In this document: positions 2,486-54,392 of the stretch, in pieces
Numbering within the stretch: position 1 is the stretch's first letter
How the letters are laid out: each line of letters starts with the position of its first letter
Source of the DNA: Phycisphaerales bacterium
Lineage (GTDB): Bacteria; Planctomycetota; Phycisphaerae; Phycisphaerales; UBA1924
Direction: 5' to 3'
Assembly: GCA_029260315.1 (NCBI GenBank)
Contig: JAJDDM010000072.1
Coordinates: 1,357 to 65,356 of the forward strand
DNA length: 64,000 bases
Program-made: the position numbers and the translations under genes
Notes under the pieces: model-generated
The model's input: the letters and a program-made list of their open reading frames with translations, nothing else
Databases searched by the model: none
What the model was told of the DNA's origin: nothing

Positions 2486-3019
2486 TCAGGATCCCCCTCG
2501 ATGAAACGGCAACCTCTGCCGCTCGCCGACGTACCGGACAGCCCCGCGCACCGCCTCCCCATTCCACAGATACCGCGTGCTTCCGTGCCGAGCCCAGAGC
2601 CTGGTCCCCTCCGTCAGCGCTTCTTTCCGAAGCCTGCGCGTCGCCCACGACTTGAGCTGCCGCATGATCTCCTCGGGCGACTCTTCCGGGGCCGTCAGCA
2701 CGACATGGACGTGCGTGCTCATGGCGTCAGGGGCGAGAAGCGTCCAGTTGCGGATCTTCGCGTGGTCGGCGATCGACCGCCTGACGATGCGCTGGGCGGG
2801 CGCTGTCAGGCGGAACGGAGGCGAGGTCATGCGTCGGCGCGCGGCGTTCTCGCGCAGTTCGTCCTTGGGGTAGTACGGGGTTGCGAACTCGTTGTGTGTG
2901 GAATCCACCGACCCGCGAGCATCGCCATGGAGGCGGTGACCATAAGTGGACCAAGTCAGGAAGTAGGCGAGCGGGCGGCGCTTCGATTCTCTGGTTCGAA
3001 TCGCCGGGTCACCTTCCAT
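2486..3019 (-). CDS. REP-associated tyrosine transposase-like protein (RayT / IS200-IS605 Y1 HUH family), 177 aa
   Basis: This is the 3' 534 nt of ORF 2486..4840(-), starting at ATG 3019-3017 (MEGDPAIRTRESKRRPLAYFLTWSTYGHRLHGD). It has an HUH motif in STHVHVVL and a C-terminal GSTRYLW tyrosine region. It is bracketed by inverted REP-A copies. Confidence 0.8.
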   Translation of the reverse strand: MEGDPAIRTRESKRRPLAYFLTWSTYGHRLHGDARGSVDSTHNEFATPYYPKDELRENAARRRMTSPPFRLTAPAQRIVRRSIADHAKIRNWTLLAPDAMSTHVHVVLTAPEESPEEIMRQLKSWATRRLRKEALTEGTRLWARHGSTRYLWNGEAVRGAVRYVGERQRLPFHRGGS

Positions 3020-3096
3020 GGTCGGCAGGATACCGTGCAAGTGGAAGAGTTGGCATTGTTTGCCGAGAACGGTACGGGCTGCCTGCCGGACGACCA

Positions 3097-3127
3097 ATCG
3101 CGAGCTTGCGCTCGCGGCTCCGTTTTG
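3097..3127. repeat. REP family A copy (right flank of the RayT-like gene)
   Basis: The sequence is ATCGCGAGCTTGCGCTCGCGGCTCCGTTTTG, with palindrome CGCGAGC-TTGC-GCTCGCG at 3099-3116. Confidence 0.85.
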
Positions 3128-3165
3128 GGGTGCGCTCCAATCCGACCGCCGCCGATAGCCGATAA

Positions 3166-3200
3166 CCCATCGCGAGCTTGTGCCCGCGCCTCCGCGTTCT
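3166..3200. repeat. Degenerate REP family A copy
   Basis: CCCATCGCGAGCTTGTGCCCGCGCCTCCGCGTTCT has the same head as the rlmN copy (ACCCATCGCGAGC). The stem carries a mismatch. Confidence 0.5.
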
Positions 3201-3220: not shown

Positions 3221-4636
3221 ATGGCCCACTACGACCTCCTCGTCATCGGCTCCGGACCCGCCGGCTACAAAGCCGCCATCCAGGCCGCCAAGCTCGGCCG
3301 CCGCGTCTGCGTCGTCGAAAAGGAACGCGTCGTCGGCGGGGCCGCCATCAACACCGGCACCATCCCCTCCAAGGCCCTTCGCGAGGCCATCCTGACCCTC
3401 GCCGAGCGACCCGTCGTCATGCCCCGCTTCGACGACTTTACCGCCGCCCGCAACGCCGTGTTCTCCAACCTCCGCGGCTGCTGCTCCAAGATCATCGCCA
3501 GCGAGGTCAACATCGTCCGCGAGCACTTCGCGCGCAACGGCGTCGACCTCCGCGAGGGCTGCGCCCGCTTCGTTGATGACAAGACCATCGACGTCGGCTG
3601 CCAGGACTCCCACGTCAAACTCACCGCCGACAAAGTCGTCATCGCCGTCGGCACCACCCCGGCCCGCCCCGAGGGCGTCGCGTTCGACGACCGCACGATC
3701 ATCACCTCCGACGAGATCGTCGATCTCCAGTTCCTGCCCCACTCGATGATCGTCGTCGGTGGTGGGGTCATCGGCACCGAGTACGCCAGCATGCTCAGCG
3801 CCCTGGGCGTCAAGGTCACGCTCATCGAAGGACGCGACCGCCTGCTCGACTTCGTCGACAGCGAGATCACCGAGGCTCTGCAATACCACCTCCGCCAGAA
3901 CGGCATGACTCTCCGCCTGGGAGAAAAGGTCACTAGGATCGAGGCCATCGACGCCCCGCCCGCCGCGCGCACCGCCGACAACCGCATGGCCCAGGCCACG
4001 CTCGATTCCGGCAAGACCCTGCGCGCCGACTGCCTGCTCTACGCCATCGGCCGCCAGGGCGCGACCGACGCGCTCGACCTCCAGAACGCGGGCCTTTCCG
4101 CCGACAACCGCGGCCGCATCAAGGTCAACGACAACTACCAGACCGAGGCCAGCCACATCTACGCCGTGGGCGATGTCATCGGCTTCCCCGCCCTCGCCAG
4201 CACCTCCATGGAACAGGGCCGCCAGGCGGCGTGCCACATGTTCGGCGAGTCCTGCCACAAGATGGACGAACTCCTGCCCTACGGCATATACGCCGTGCCC
4301 GAGATCTCCATGGTCGGCTGGACCGAGCAGCGCCTCACCGACGAGGGCATCCCCTACGAGTCCGGCATCGCCCAGTACAAAGAGATCGCGAGGGGCCAGC
4401 TCCTCGGCGACGAGATCGGCATGCTCAAGATCCTCGTCCACCAGGAGTCCCGACACATTCTCGGCGTCCACGCCATCGGCACCGGCGCGACCGAGCTCAT
4501 CCACATCGGCCAGACCGCCCTCGCCTTCCACGCCACGATCGACTACTTCGTCGACACCGTCTTCAACTACCCGACCCTGGCCGAGTGCTACAAGGTCGCC
4601 GCCTACAACGCCGTCAACAAACTCCTCGGCGTGTGA
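3221..4636 (+). CDS. sthA: Si-specific NAD(P)+ transhydrogenase (soluble pyridine nucleotide transhydrogenase), 471 aa
   Basis: Internal ATG of ORF 2471..4636 gives MAHYDLLVIGSGPAGYKAAIQAAKLGRRVCVVEK, an FAD Rossmann fold. GGAAINTGTIPSK lacks the CxxxxC redox disulfide of LpdA, as expected for SthA. The C-terminal dimerisation domain is present. Confidence 0.85.
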   Translation: MAHYDLLVIGSGPAGYKAAIQAAKLGRRVCVVEKERVVGGAAINTGTIPSKALREAILTLAERPVVMPRFDDFTAARNAVFSNLRGCCSKIIASEVNIVREHFARNGVDLREGCARFVDDKTIDVGCQDSHVKLTADKVVIAVGTTPARPEGVAFDDRTIITSDEIVDLQFLPHSMIVVGGGVIGTEYASMLSALGVKVTLIEGRDRLLDFVDSEITEALQYHLRQNGMTLRLGEKVTRIEAIDAPPAARTADNRMAQATLDSGKTLRADCLLYAIGRQGATDALDLQNAGLSADNRGRIKVNDNYQTEASHIYAVGDVIGFPALASTSMEQGRQAACHMFGESCHKMDELLPYGIYAVPEISMVGWTEQRLTDEGIPYESGIAQYKEIARGQLLGDEIGMLKILVHQESRHILGVHAIGTGATELIHIGQTALAFHATIDYFVDTVFNYPTLAECYKVAAYNAVNKLLGV

Positions 4637-4978
4637 CGGGTCACCACGAGAAAACACAGAGAGCACAGAGGGCACAGAGGGCACAGAGGGCACAGAGGGC
4701 ACAGAGGGCACAGAGGGCACAGAGGGCACAGAGGGCACAGAGGGCACAGAGGGCACAGAGGGCACAGAGGGCACAGAGGAAGAATATTCACCACGGAGTT
4801 GCGCGGAGTTCAAGGTGCGGAATCGGATCGTCCTCGACACCGTTCCTTCCGACTCCGTGTCACTCCGTGAAACTCCGTGGTGAACTCCTTGCTTTTCTCT
4901 CGTGCCCTCTGCGCCCTCTTGTGGTTCATTCCTGCTCTTCGCTTTTCGCTTTTCACTTTTCGTTTTCTACCCTCCCCC
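4637..4978. repeat. Nested imperfect palindrome filling the sthA-holB spacer (repeat family G)
   Basis: TTCACCACGGAGT at 4787-4799 mirrors ACTCCGTGGTGAA at 4872-4884. The CACAGAGGG units on the left mirror CCCTCTG units at 4905-4920. Four (G/A)CTTTTC heptamers lie at 4941-4967. Confidence 0.8.
4655..4780. repeat. Tandem repeat, 14 x 9 bp (CACAGAGGG)
   Basis: Counted directly: the units start at 4655 and recur every 9 nt to 4772. The first unit is CACAGAGAG and the last is CACAGAGGA. The repeat is open in all frames (the TEGTEG, QRAQRA and PSVPSV artefact ORFs). Confidence 0.97.
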
Positions 4979-38699: not shown

Positions 38700-38817
38700 A
38701 ACCGAACGGGCTCGTTGTTCGTTCTGGGCCACACGTCGACGATGCGAGTCTTGAACTGAGCGACGGGTGTGCGCGGTTCAACCTCATTGGGACAAGCTCC
38801 CAGGAGAGGAGCTTGTC

Positions 38818-39603
38818 ATGATGCCTATGCGGCGAAACTGGCGGGGCCCGCGAGCCGGAGCGTTGGCGTTCACGACGATCGTTGGACTCTGTCTGGCCGT
38901 GGGCGGCTGTTCGTCCCCGTCGAGGTCGGGCGGGGGGCCCGCGCAGTCGGTCAATGAGATGCACCTGCTCGGCTCGGGGGTCCACCGGGTCGACAGCGCC
39001 CCCGACGACTGTCCCGTGTGCGCTGTGTACGAGCGCAACCACGGGAGCGTCGTGCGGGTGCGTGTGCCCGGCGGCGTCGGGGCGGGTGTCGTGGTCTCCG
39101 CTTCGGGGGACATCATCACCAACGCGCATGTGGTCGGTGAGAATAAGCTCATCGTCATCGAGACCTATCACGGGACGATTGTCCGCGGGCATGTCGAGCG
39201 GGTCTGGAAAGAGGCCGATCTCGCGATCGTGACCTCCGACTCAGGCGACGTGCATTGGTTGCCCATGGCGTTTGGGCCCGCGGCGTTCCCGCGGGTGGGG
39301 ACCACGACCTACGCCATCGGGCATCCCGTGGGGCTGGGGTGGACCGTGACCCAGGGGATTATTTCGGGCCGGCGAAGAGCCGGCGAGGTCGGCCCTCTCG
39401 GGATGATCCAGACAGACGCCGCGGTCTCGCCCGGGAACTCAGGCGGACCGCTCCTTGACGAGCAGAGCCGTTGGGTCGGCGTCGTCTCGTCGAAGCTCGT
39501 TGGGCCGGGCCTGGAGAACGTCTCGTTCGCCGTGCCGATCGTGGAGGTTCGCCGGTTCTACGAGGAATCGACGGCGAGCCCGGTTACTGGCGGGGTCAAC
39601 TAG
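38818..39603 (+). CDS. trypsin-like serine peptidase, lipoprotein
   Basis: ATG 38818 follows GGAGAGGA. Lipobox LAVGGCSS. ITNAHVV (His), DLAIV (Asp) and SPGNSGGPLL (Ser) are present. Confidence 0.85.
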   Translation: MMPMRRNWRGPRAGALAFTTIVGLCLAVGGCSSPSRSGGGPAQSVNEMHLLGSGVHRVDSAPDDCPVCAVYERNHGSVVRVRVPGGVGAGVVVSASGDIITNAHVVGENKLIVIETYHGTIVRGHVERVWKEADLAIVTSDSGDVHWLPMAFGPAAFPRVGTTTYAIGHPVGLGWTVTQGIISGRRRAGEVGPLGMIQTDAAVSPGNSGGPLLDEQSRWVGVVSSKLVGPGLENVSFAVPIVEVRRFYEESTASPVTGGVN

Positions 39604-39698: not shown

Positions 39699-41045
39699 AT
39701 GAACCACCCCGCCAGCCACATCTTCGCTTTCACGCCGGATTCGCTCGTTGAATGGTGCGGGGATCGCGGCATGGCGGCGTACCGCGCCCGCCAAATCCTC
39801 GGGTGGGTCTATCAGCGCGGCGTGATCGATCCGGACGCGATGTCCAACCTCGCCAAGCGGGACCGTGAAGTGCTCGCCAACGAGATGACGTTCATTTCCG
39901 GCGACATCCTGAGCCATCAGGCGGCGACCGACGGGACGCGCAAGATGCTCGTGGAATGGAGAGACGAGTCAGACCCACGGAGCCGCGAGCGCAAGCTCGC
40001 GATGGGTCATCCAATCGCCGGCTCGCTTCCGATTCTGCAAGGCTCCTCCGACGGAGGCGATCCAACGCGCCAGACCGAGTGCGTGATGATCCCCGCCGAG
40101 CCGCACGGGCGGGACGCCCGTGCCACCGGGGCGAAAGAAACTCGCGCGGACGAATCGCGCATCCGTCGCACCGCCTGCATCTCCAGCCAGGTCGGCTGCC
40201 CCGTCGGCTGCAAGTTCTGTGCATCCGGCCTCGGCGGGCTCGATGGGAACCTCTCCGCAGGTCGCATCGTCGAGCAGGTCTGGCTGCTGGACCAACTCGT
40301 GAAGGGAAATCTGGTTGAGGGTAGATCGACTCTCCGAGCCGATGCGAGGATTGAGGGTAGATCGGCTCTCCGAGCCGATGCGATGGATGAGCCAGATCAG
40401 AGAGATTCGACAGCAACCCAAGACCAATCGGCTCGGAGAGCCGATCTACCCAGGATCACCAACATCGTCTTCATGGGCATGGGCGAGCCCCTGGCCAACT
40501 TCCAGAGCGTCGTCCACGCGGTCCGCACGATCGCGGCGGATTGGGGCATGGGCATCGGTGCCCGCCGCATCACCATCTCGACGGTGGGTTTGCCCAAGGC
40601 GATCGAAAAACTCGCCGAGCAACTCGAGCTGCCGGTGACGCTGGCGCTGAGCCTTCACGCGCCCAACGACGAGCTTCGTCGGGAGCTGATTCCGTGGGCG
40701 GAGTACACGACGATCGATGAGCTGTTGCGGGCCTGCCGGGCGTGGTTCGACAAGGCCGGGCGGGAGATCACGCTGGAGTACATTCTTCTTGGCGGCGTGA
40801 ACGACCAGGCCGAGCACGCGGGGCAGTTGGCGGGCGTCGCGAAAAGCCTGCGGGCGAACGTCAACCTGATCCGGTACAACGAGGTGAGTGGGTTGCCGTA
40901 TGCGCGGCCGACCCACGCGGATGTGCGCCGGTTCCAGGAGATCCTGCGCGAGCGGGGGGTGAACGCGCACATCCGGACGAGCCGGGGACGGGATATCGCC
41001 GCGGCGTGCGGGCAGTTGCGGCATGAGACCGCAGGGGCGAGATAG
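39699..41045 (+). CDS. rlmN: 23S rRNA (adenine2503-C2)-methyltransferase, radical SAM, 448 aa (about 100 aa longer than usual)
   Basis: Internal ATG 39699 of ORF 39471..41045. YRARQILGWVY, SSQVGCPVGCKFCASG (CxxxCxxC), NIVFMGMGEPL, ISTVG, LALSLHAP, EYILLGGVND, NLIRYN and CGQL are present. Confidence 0.92.
   Translation: MNHPASHIFAFTPDSLVEWCGDRGMAAYRARQILGWVYQRGVIDPDAMSNLAKRDREVLANEMTFISGDILSHQAATDGTRKMLVEWRDESDPRSRERKLAMGHPIAGSLPILQGSSDGGDPTRQTECVMIPAEPHGRDARATGAKETRADESRIRRTACISSQVGCPVGCKFCASGLGGLDGNLSAGRIVEQVWLLDQLVKGNLVEGRSTLRADARIEGRSALRADAMDEPDQRDSTATQDQSARRADLPRITNIVFMGMGEPLANFQSVVHAVRTIAADWGMGIGARRITISTVGLPKAIEKLAEQLELPVTLALSLHAPNDELRRELIPWAEYTTIDELLRACRAWFDKAGREITLEYILLGGVNDQAEHAGQLAGVAKSLRANVNLIRYNEVSGLPYARPTHADVRRFQEILRERGVNAHIRTSRGRDIAAACGQLRHETAGAR
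39969..40073. repeat. In-frame insertion 1 in rlmN, containing a REP family A copy
   Basis: ACGGAGCCGCGAGCGCAAGCTCGCGATGGGT, with the palindrome at 39984-40001, matches the RayT-flanking repeats. It encodes SDPRSRERKLAMGHPIAGSLPILQGSSDGGDPTRQ. Confidence 0.8.
40101..40163. repeat. In-frame insertion 2 in rlmN, containing a family B hairpin
   Basis: CACGGGCG-gga-CGCCCGTG at 40104-40122 is followed by CCACC, as in 54338-54361. It encodes PHGRDARATGAKETRADESRI. Confidence 0.75.
40319..40451. mobile_element. In-frame insertion 3 in rlmN: REP/REPIN-like family D (two direct and one inverted unit)
   Basis: GGGTAGATCG(A/G)CTCTCCGAGCCGAT lies at 40319-40343 and 40355-40379. The reverse complement lies at 40427-40451. 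Confidence 0.88.
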
Positions 41046-41057
41046 CGGGCAAGGGCC

Positions 41058-41222
41058 AAAACGGAGCCGCGTGCGCAAGCACGCGAGAGATCGCCCGGGG
41101 TCCATGGGGCGTCGGTTCTTGCGAGCGATTGCAAGTCTGAACGACTTGAGACCCTTGACGCTCCCTCGCGAGCTGGCGCTCGCGGCTCCGTTTGTGCGGA
41201 ACGCGCTCGCGGCTCCGGAGGC
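41058..41222. repeat. Cluster of REP family A copies between rlmN and hrpA
   Basis: 41058-41088 (stem CGCGTGC/GCACGCG), 41165-41194 (CGCGAGC-tggc-GCTCGCG followed by GCTCCGTTTG) and a half copy at 41203-41222. Confidence 0.8.
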
Positions 41223-54271: not shown

Positions 54272-54392
54272 GTCCTGTTTGACGGATCGGTGGAACGGGC
54301 GTCTCGCCCGTTCGTATCGTGGATTATCTCCAACACGCACGGGCGAGACGCCCGTGCCACCGCTGTCTTGTGATCCGTCAAACAGAACCTAG
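54268..54392. mobile_element. 125-bp palindromic element (family B core) between convergent genes
   Basis: The arms are CTAGGTCCTGTTTGACGGATC...GGTGGAACGGGCGTCTCGCCCGT and the reverse complement. CTAG lies at both ends. The element overlaps both stop codons. Confidence 0.8.

Follow-up and report, generated by a model that had tools for sequence, protein, structure and literature searches.

An in-frame REP element, of a family associated with a RayT-like gene, in a variable loop of rlmN from a Phycisphaerales genome

A repetitive extragenic palindromic (REP) element was found inside the coding sequence of rlmN in a 64,000-nt stretch of a Phycisphaerales genome (the window; copy counts and match searches within it refer to the whole of these 64 kb). 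The element is a genuine member of a REP family designated here family A, a single unit of ~33-38 nt lying in frame in the gene. It is situated in the first of three variable loops of the encoded enzyme (loop 1). We consider it likely that the element is a tolerated passenger: an in-frame REP associated with a gene similar to REP-associated tyrosine transposases (RayT), residing in a pre-existing, disordered loop of RlmN in which such units would have been captured or replaced recurrently.

The 31-mer ACGGAGCCGCGAGCGCAAGCTCGCGATGGGT occupies positions 39977-40007 (+) inside rlmN. When up to 3 mismatches were allowed, its sole other match in the window was at 3093-3123 (-), beside a Y1-transposase gene, and the two sequences differ by 1 mismatch (30/31 identical). 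The match was absent from 100/100 dinucleotide-preserving shuffles. The degenerate core motif GGAGCCGCGNGCGNNNGCNCGCG occurred 6 times against 0.23 expected, and an nhmmer profile made from the family-A copies returned exactly 6 copies in the window with E < 1e-7. The rlmN copy, which belongs to subfamily A1, was delimited by the profile to 39976-40008 (+; E = 4e-10) and reads P93-G103 (PRSRERKLAMG); the unit probably reaches to 39974-40013. Its 5' flank CCCACGG is also present at L033:2293 in another metagenome-assembled genome (MAG). The 3' flank is ATGGGTCATCCAA, and a ATAGGTCATCCAA version of it was found at a REP copy in locus L018, from the same MAG as L033. With a genome of 65% G+C, and with CGCG-rich palindromes arising by chance in phyla that are not related (Acidobacteria, Sorangium, others), a fortuitous GC-rich palindrome without relation to the REP family had to be considered. 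Against it stand the extension of the identity into the non-palindromic flanks, the shuffling result, the E value and the occurrence of the same flanks at REP copies of another MAG; we give this explanation practically no chance. The first-pass annotation of the stretch had recognized the palindrome as the one that flanks the RayT-like gene, which proved correct.

The core palindrome (39984-40001, +) consists of CGCGAGC (39984-39990), the loop GCAA (39991-39994) and GCTCGCG (39995-40001). The 7-bp stem with its GNRA-type loop is the short stem-loop palindrome characteristic of REPs. It is prolonged by an outer 6-bp stem, in which GACCCA (39972-39977) pairs with TGGGTC (40003-40008), and which exists because the 5' flank of this copy is CCCA where most copies in the window have AAAA. 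Folding of 39969-40015 as RNA gave -21.8 kcal/mol (z = -3.86), and none of 200 shuffled sequences folded equally well. The copy is a singlet; no partner was found within loop 1, and therefore it does not qualify as a REPIN (inverted dimer). A second small hairpin, which had been reported further downstream (CCTCC-gac-GGAGG, 40045-40057, +), is at chance level and was discarded: z was -0.54 and 56/200 shuffles folded as well or better.

The REP copy is stop-free and lies inside a continuous open reading frame (ORF), whose RlmN portion begins at the ATG at 39699. The earlier reading of the element as in-frame PRSRERKLAMG was borne out by this uninterrupted frame. No stop codon is present in 6/6 frames of the 31-nt REP core, or in 5/6 frames of the extended unit of 41 nt. 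As the RlmN_N domain is encoded upstream and the radical-SAM core downstream of the REP in one frame, the element would be translated if the enzyme is made. Judged from the integrity of the gene, the REP is thus probably represented in the protein; the tryptic peptides covering its REP-coded part would be LAMGHPIAGSLPILQGSSDGGDPTR, or DESDPR.

The rlmN coding sequence (39699-41045, +; 448 aa) is intact by all comparisons made. The whole-protein score to TIGR00048 (RlmN equivalog) was 333.7 bits, above the cutoff of 290, and the Pfam domains RlmN_N (PF21016) and Radical_SAM (PF04055) were both identified. Sequence matches to RlmN structures in the PDB went down to E = 7e-67. An AlphaFold (AF2) model with a mean predicted local distance difference test (pLDDT) score of 79.8 gave target TM-scores of 0.82-0.87 against 5hr7, 6fz6 and 3rfa (0.82 against 5hr7 and 3rfa). 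The CX3CX2C cluster motif is represented by C167, C171 and C174, and the mechanistic cysteines C160 and C437 align to C118 and C355 of the E. coli enzyme. All five cysteines are invariant in an alignment of 121 sequences, composed of the window protein and its 120 best orthologues, all of which come from Phycisphaerales or Planctomycetota MAGs. The protein is predicted to be an m2A2503/m2A37 methyltransferase. Outside the loops, identity to the two closest orthologues is ~86% over conserved columns. Identities to the nearest orthologues at codon positions 1, 2 and 3 were 0.89, 0.93 and 0.55, and this order (second > first > third) points to purifying selection on rlmN. Three separate repeat-bearing loops in one gene do resemble damage, and one could suppose that rlmN is a decaying pseudogene, or that its start lies downstream of the REP, which would leave the REP untranslated. 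However, the uninterrupted ORF with both domains in one frame, the conservation of the catalytic and cluster cysteines, the above-cutoff TIGR00048 score and the signature of purifying selection make this very improbable.

Loop 1 (39960-40067, +) comprises codons R88-T123 (36 aa) and joins strand β'2 to strand β'3 of the β-sheet extension located between the N-terminal HhH2 domain and the radical-SAM core. By DSSP, the two strands correspond to residues 81-87 and 125-133 of the model (strand names are taken from PMC13001441). The HMMER alignment to E. coli RlmN breaks at query residue 88 (residue 100 of the chain) and restarts at query residue 156 (residue 114 of the chain). Across this gap the window protein has 67 residues and the E. 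coli protein 13; the extra residues amount to ~30 in loop 1 and ~20 in loop 2.

It had been proposed that the entire block of ~35 codons between LVEWRDE and TECVMIP was inserted. The segment is indeed missing from the RlmN of E. coli and Sphaerobacter, the palindrome does lie inside it, and its length relative to E. coli is real. As an inserted element, however, the block was rejected. The loop was found in 120/120 orthologues (19-85 aa, median 35), and a shorter SLPxL version of it is present in Planctomycetota that are less closely related. The similarity to family A spans only 33-38 nt, only 11-13 codons are REP-derived, and the C-terminal 15 codons are conserved in genes that have no REP. 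Insertion of the whole block is, in our estimate, extremely improbable. The conserved C-terminal part of the loop (40023-40067, +; S109-T123, SLPILQGSSDGGDPT) is not derived from the REP: the consensus SLPxL...GDPxRQTECVMIP (SLPIL...GDPTRQ in the window) is common to orthologues with and without REP, and L110, R124 and Q125 show little or no variation. Hypervariability is confined to the N-terminal 10-25 residues. In the REP-free orthologues P0004 and P0006 (DNA: L050 and L134) the loop has 23-25 aa with the conserved end and is ~11 codons shorter than in the window. Repeat-free relatives revealed by the orthologue alignment accordingly share the loop with the window, but not its REP-coded part. 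A metagenome scan for rlmN relatives yielded mostly distant genes (<=57% identity), among them genes of other Planctomycetota with the shorter SLPxL loop; no family-A REP was found in these distant relatives. In the model the flanking strands are confident, residues 91-100 have a mean pLDDT of 73, residues 102-116 are below 50, and the REP-coded residues appear as a short low-confidence helix. Loop 1 is therefore predicted by the model to be disordered, and it tolerates 19-85 residues across the order.

The window RlmN forms a clade with P0001 and P0002 (bootstrap 100%; 99% for the P0001-P0002 pair). In the DNA of these two orthologues (L002 and L001) loop 1 likewise contains a family-A REP, with the orientation and frame that it has in the window; the presence of a REP here is therefore no novelty private to one lineage. 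The L001 copy, AGCCGCGTGCGTGAGCACGCG, has a perfect 7-bp palindrome (nhmmer E = 0.0026 in a search of 12 kb of rlmN genes), and its hairpin folds with -19.2 kcal/mol (z = -3.2). In the L002 copy the stem is broken by two changes, and its fold is at chance (z = -1.0). The copies belong to different subfamilies. The window copy has 5' ACGG, loop GCAA and 3' ATGGGTCATCCAA, whereas the copies of L001 and L002 have 5' ATCAG, loop GTGA and 3' GACCT, the same type being present at L002:222, L011, L045 and L046. The insertion points are ~three codons apart: the REP follows WRDESD in the window and WSD in L001 and L002. The REP-coded peptides differ (RERKLA, RVREHA and RGRENA), and it is the DNA that is conserved. 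Because the third positions of the REP codons are kept among the three genes while the second positions vary (E/V/G, L/H/N, K/E), selection on the peptide is disfavoured. Identity at four-fold degenerate third positions among the three REP-bearing genes is 0.46-0.48; synonymous sites are saturated, and for this reason a neutral ancestral copy should be unrecognizable by now, yet the window copy matches its family at 30/31 positions. The REP-free P0004 and P0006 have the ispH-rlmN arrangement and a loop-3 motif in common with the window, and L050 also has hrpA downstream.

A possible third case was seen in a more distant clade. P0003, P0005, P0007, P0036, P0044 and P0109 read RAR[SRI]A[SG] at the position of the window's REP, and the DNA of three of them (L051, L132 and L133) has there the REP-A-like sequence AGAGCCCGAAGCGCAAGCGAGG, in another frame than the window. 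In L132 and L133 this element starts three codons past W87. In L051 the 36-mer of this element recurs with 92% identity in the spacer that follows rlmN, ~90 nt past the gene. On sequence comparison, the identification of the element as a relative of REP-A is suggestive only.

Other repeats were also noted in the rlmN of L051 (P0003; 10262-10423 and 10634-10756). Its loop 1 carries, in addition, a repeat of the ATERRSDEG type and a (TCAGGAC)n array, both of which have further copies in the locus; the array recurs at L051:14106 and 14942. Its loop 3 holds both arms of an inverted repeat (SDEATERRSDEG ... PSVASSLRPSVA), which are read from GAGCGACGAAGCGACGAAGGG and its reverse complement, and one arm is found in loop 1. 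Many other orthologues likewise have ATERRSDEG and SLRRS peptides in their loops 1 and 3.

The observations on the window and its two relatives can be accommodated by the following scheme. A REP unit from the genome's own family would have landed in the hypervariable part of loop 1, or overwritten an earlier REP there. Being stop-free and in frame, it would simply be read through, adding 11-13 residues (P93-G103, or up to P105) to an enzyme otherwise intact. It would be tolerated for the same reasons, and because the loop is tolerant of length. Selection would purge insertions elsewhere in rlmN and spare loop 1, which would become a recurrent REP sink in different lineages. The copy of the window lineage is probably young or recently overwritten, since it is near-identical to the copy beside the genome's own RayT-like gene, and the relatives have their own subfamily a few codons away. 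Recurrent capture or replacement is favoured over a single conserved copy by the saturation of synonymous sites, the subfamily-specific flanks and the shifted insertion points. The insertion would then be independent rather than ancestral, and we infer that the REP copy is neutral and does not represent an adaptation.

Alternatively, a single REP might have been present in the ancestor of the window, P0001 and P0002 and kept by selection on a nucleic-acid hairpin or as a DNA site bound by RayT. All three members of the 100%-bootstrap clade do carry the REP. The window and L001 both have a perfect 7-bp palindrome in spite of saturated synonymous sites, and the hairpins of both are stable. Several facts count against capture or replacement and must be weighed with these. 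The stems of the window and L001 differ by a compensatory change (A:T -> T:A), which is equally compatible with a selected hairpin and with two subfamilies. Between L001 and L002, 12/12 third positions are identical over the REP codons, against a gene mean of 0.54, making this the best window in the gene. Close relatives are limited to two, L001 and L002, and the latter is a low-coverage contig with split genes, whose details are uncertain. The position of REP-free P0004 and P0006 as the sister clade has a bootstrap value of 38% only, and the third-clade element agrees with family A at ~20/27 bases and is not a clean palindrome. On the other side, the flanks outside the stem follow each genome's own subfamily, which selection on the hairpin does not predict. 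The REPs lie ~three codons apart in the two lineages, the L002 stem is broken twice and folds at chance, and more than 110 orthologues function without a family-A REP. Moreover, both stem variants coexist in the window as ordinary family members (41058 versus 3092). An ancestral copy preserved by selection is on balance distinctly unlikely, and capture or replacement of a tolerated passenger remains the explanation we prefer.

A stronger version of the sink can also be envisaged, in which the β'2/β'3 loop is a true hot spot for insertion of RayT-mobilized REPs across the Phycisphaerales and more than a permissive site, or in which the hairpin or the peptide was co-opted. Within a stretch of ~10 codons there are two REP subfamilies at least, and perhaps three, in different genera and in two reading frames, and in two genomes a sister REP copy lies just 3' of rlmN. 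We regard this version as unlikely. If true, REPs would either be integrated in a site-directed manner into a conserved RNA-modification gene or be retained in it for a function.

The family to which the rlmN copy belongs has the consensus AAAACGG-AGC-CGCGAGC-GCAA-GCTCGCG-ATGGGT. Its 6 copies in the window are distributed over three loci, and 5/6 are intergenic. Two copies bracket the RayT-like gene in inverted orientation, one at 2411-2443 (+; E = 1.5e-8) and the other at 3092-3126 (-; E = 4.4e-11), which is the nearest to the rlmN copy; this is the arrangement known as a REPtron. A diverged intergenic copy follows at 3165-3198 (-; E = 2.5e-8). Directly 3' of the rlmN stop codon there is a copy with the stem variant CGCGTGC...GCACGCG (41058-41092, +; E = 6e-9), and its partner lies upstream of hrpA (41162-41194, -; E = 2.8e-8), next to a half copy at 41203-41217. 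The former two constitute a REPIN-like inverted pair (41058-41092 with 41150-41193), with 44-nt arms that are 82% complementary.

The RayT-like gene itself (2486-3022, -) encodes a Y1 (HUH) transposase, as judged by a Pfam Y1_Tnp score of 30.2 bits (cutoff 23) and a legible HVHVV (HUH) motif. Its best NCBIfam match was REP_Tyr_transpos (REP-associated tyrosine transposase), with 31 bits, which is below the cutoff of 80, and a PDB sequence search with the protein gave no meaningful match. A homologue with 42% identity (E = 1e-42) is encoded in L011, from a Phycisphaerales MAG, and is likewise flanked by family-A copies. The rlmN REP may have been mobilized by RayT. Scanning 185,579 species genomes for the exact REP pattern yielded 47 single-match stretches, the majority from MAGs of Phycisphaerales or Planctomycetota; Acidobacteria, Sorangium and others were also matched. 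Family A is widespread in Phycisphaerales MAGs. Sorting the REP matches of other MAGs into intragenic and intergenic ones by open frames was tried and abandoned, high G+C giving rise to spurious frames; the 10 best candidates looked non-coding or upstream of genes.

Reportedly, an extension of the α1/β2 loop and an extension of the sheet by β'1-3 were described for RlmN by Boal in 2011. The β' extension and the α1/β2 loop are the connecting loops known to differ between RlmN and Cfr (PMC13001441). Unlike those known loops, the loops of the Phycisphaerales enzymes are far longer, and each of the three variable loops in the window gene carries a different palindromic repeat family. Loop 2 (β'3 to β1) contains at 40104-40122 the perfect palindrome CACGGGCG-GGA-CGCCCGTG, followed by CCACC, and reads HGRDARATG; relatives are at 54338-54356 and 54295-54311, and peptides resembling it (HGRDARA, SRATG) were seen in loop 2 of other orthologues. 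Loop 3 (the α1/β2 loop, 40315-40451) harbours a second repeat family, GGGTAGATCG[G/A]CTCTCCGAGCCGAT, with direct copies at 40319-40343 and 40355-40379 and an inverted copy at 40427-40451, whose 25 nt are 100% complementary to those of the second direct copy. These repeats are read in frame and end in ...SARRADLP. Loop 3 has 54 aa in the window against 19-22 aa in the nearest orthologues, and its repeat looks window-specific and recent. An array of 2.8 copies of the same family is present at 1517-1631, and related peptides (...SRLGEPTYP) were found in loop 3 of P0115 and P0013.

The surroundings of rlmN differ among the loci. In L001 and L002, rlmN is followed by a gene for a pyridine-nucleotide-disulfide oxidoreductase, whose orthologue in the window (~3222-4636) adjoins the RayT-like gene with its REPs. 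The gene downstream of rlmN is hrpA in the window and L050, and in the window the spacer between these two genes holds the REP pair. The break in synteny, as seen from L001, L002 and L050, coincides with the REP clusters 3092-3198 and 41058-41217, which suggests a REP-associated rearrangement. Between ispH and rlmN the window has an extra ORF (38767-39603) with a trypsin-like serine-protease motif, GNSGGP; in L001, L050 and L134 the stop codon of ispH overlaps the start of rlmN. The oxidoreductase gene is closely followed by a tandem array (4655-4779) of 13.9 copies of the 9-mer CACAGAGGG with 99% matches, which reads (PSV)n on the opposite strand.

REP/RAYT systems are said to have been described by Nunvar in 2010. 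In the REP/REPIN-RAYT systems, REPINs are described as almost exclusively extragenic (Bertels and Rainey 2011, PMC3116915). Family A resembles these systems in its palindromes of 20-40 nt, in the single Y1/HUH gene between inverted REPs, in the inverted pairs located in spacers (41058/41194) and in the long-term persistence of the family within a bacterial order. Unlike the REPINs, the rlmN copy is a singlet and coding.

REPs that are in frame in conserved genes ('codogenic' REPs) have already been reported, including cases in genes for RNA-binding proteins and in Opitutus terrae, of the PVC (Planctomycetes-Verrucomicrobia-Chlamydiae) group (Di Nocera et al. 2013, BMC Genomics 14:522, PMC3733652). 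As far as the relevant sections of that paper go, its REPs are, like family A, short RayT-type palindromes which are mostly intergenic and sometimes in frame, adding ~10-30 residues. Unlike family A, they are sorted there by the tag next to the stem, GTAG or CGTC; family A has on its 5' side ACGG or ACAG and then AGC, and neither the GTAG nor the CGTC tag was found on either strand of its consensus. RlmN does not figure among the classes of genes that the same sections name, and recurrence at one loop across genera is not shown in them. An in-frame REP in a conserved gene is thus already known, and it is only the recurrence at one loop that is unusual here. A further comparison can be made with the Rickettsia palindromic elements (RPEs), in-frame selfish palindromes of housekeeping genes (Ogata et al. 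2000, as summarized in PMC10969869). According to the summary, RPEs, like the rlmN unit, are read through as an extra peptide at positions compatible with the fold. They differ from it in having ~100-150 bp and a conserved peptide of 30-50 aa; the rlmN unit has 33-38 nt, its peptide is not conserved, and a RayT-like gene is present. By size (100-150 bp) and by peptide conservation the rlmN unit is not an RPE.

REPs and REPINs have been treated as near-strictly extragenic, and cases of read-through, of which the present one is probably an example, show that selfish palindromes can lengthen the loops of a protein and supply raw sequence to it. Useful features of this case are the presence of a RayT-like gene in the same window, the relatives' own subfamily in the same loop, and two further repeat families in other loops. 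The RlmN proteins of the Phycisphaerales offer a natural system in which the neutrality of such insertions, the distinction between targeted and tolerated sites, and the rate of their turnover may be studied. For annotation, the finding explains how the length of RlmN can range from ~370 to 467 aa within the order without loss of the catalytic core.

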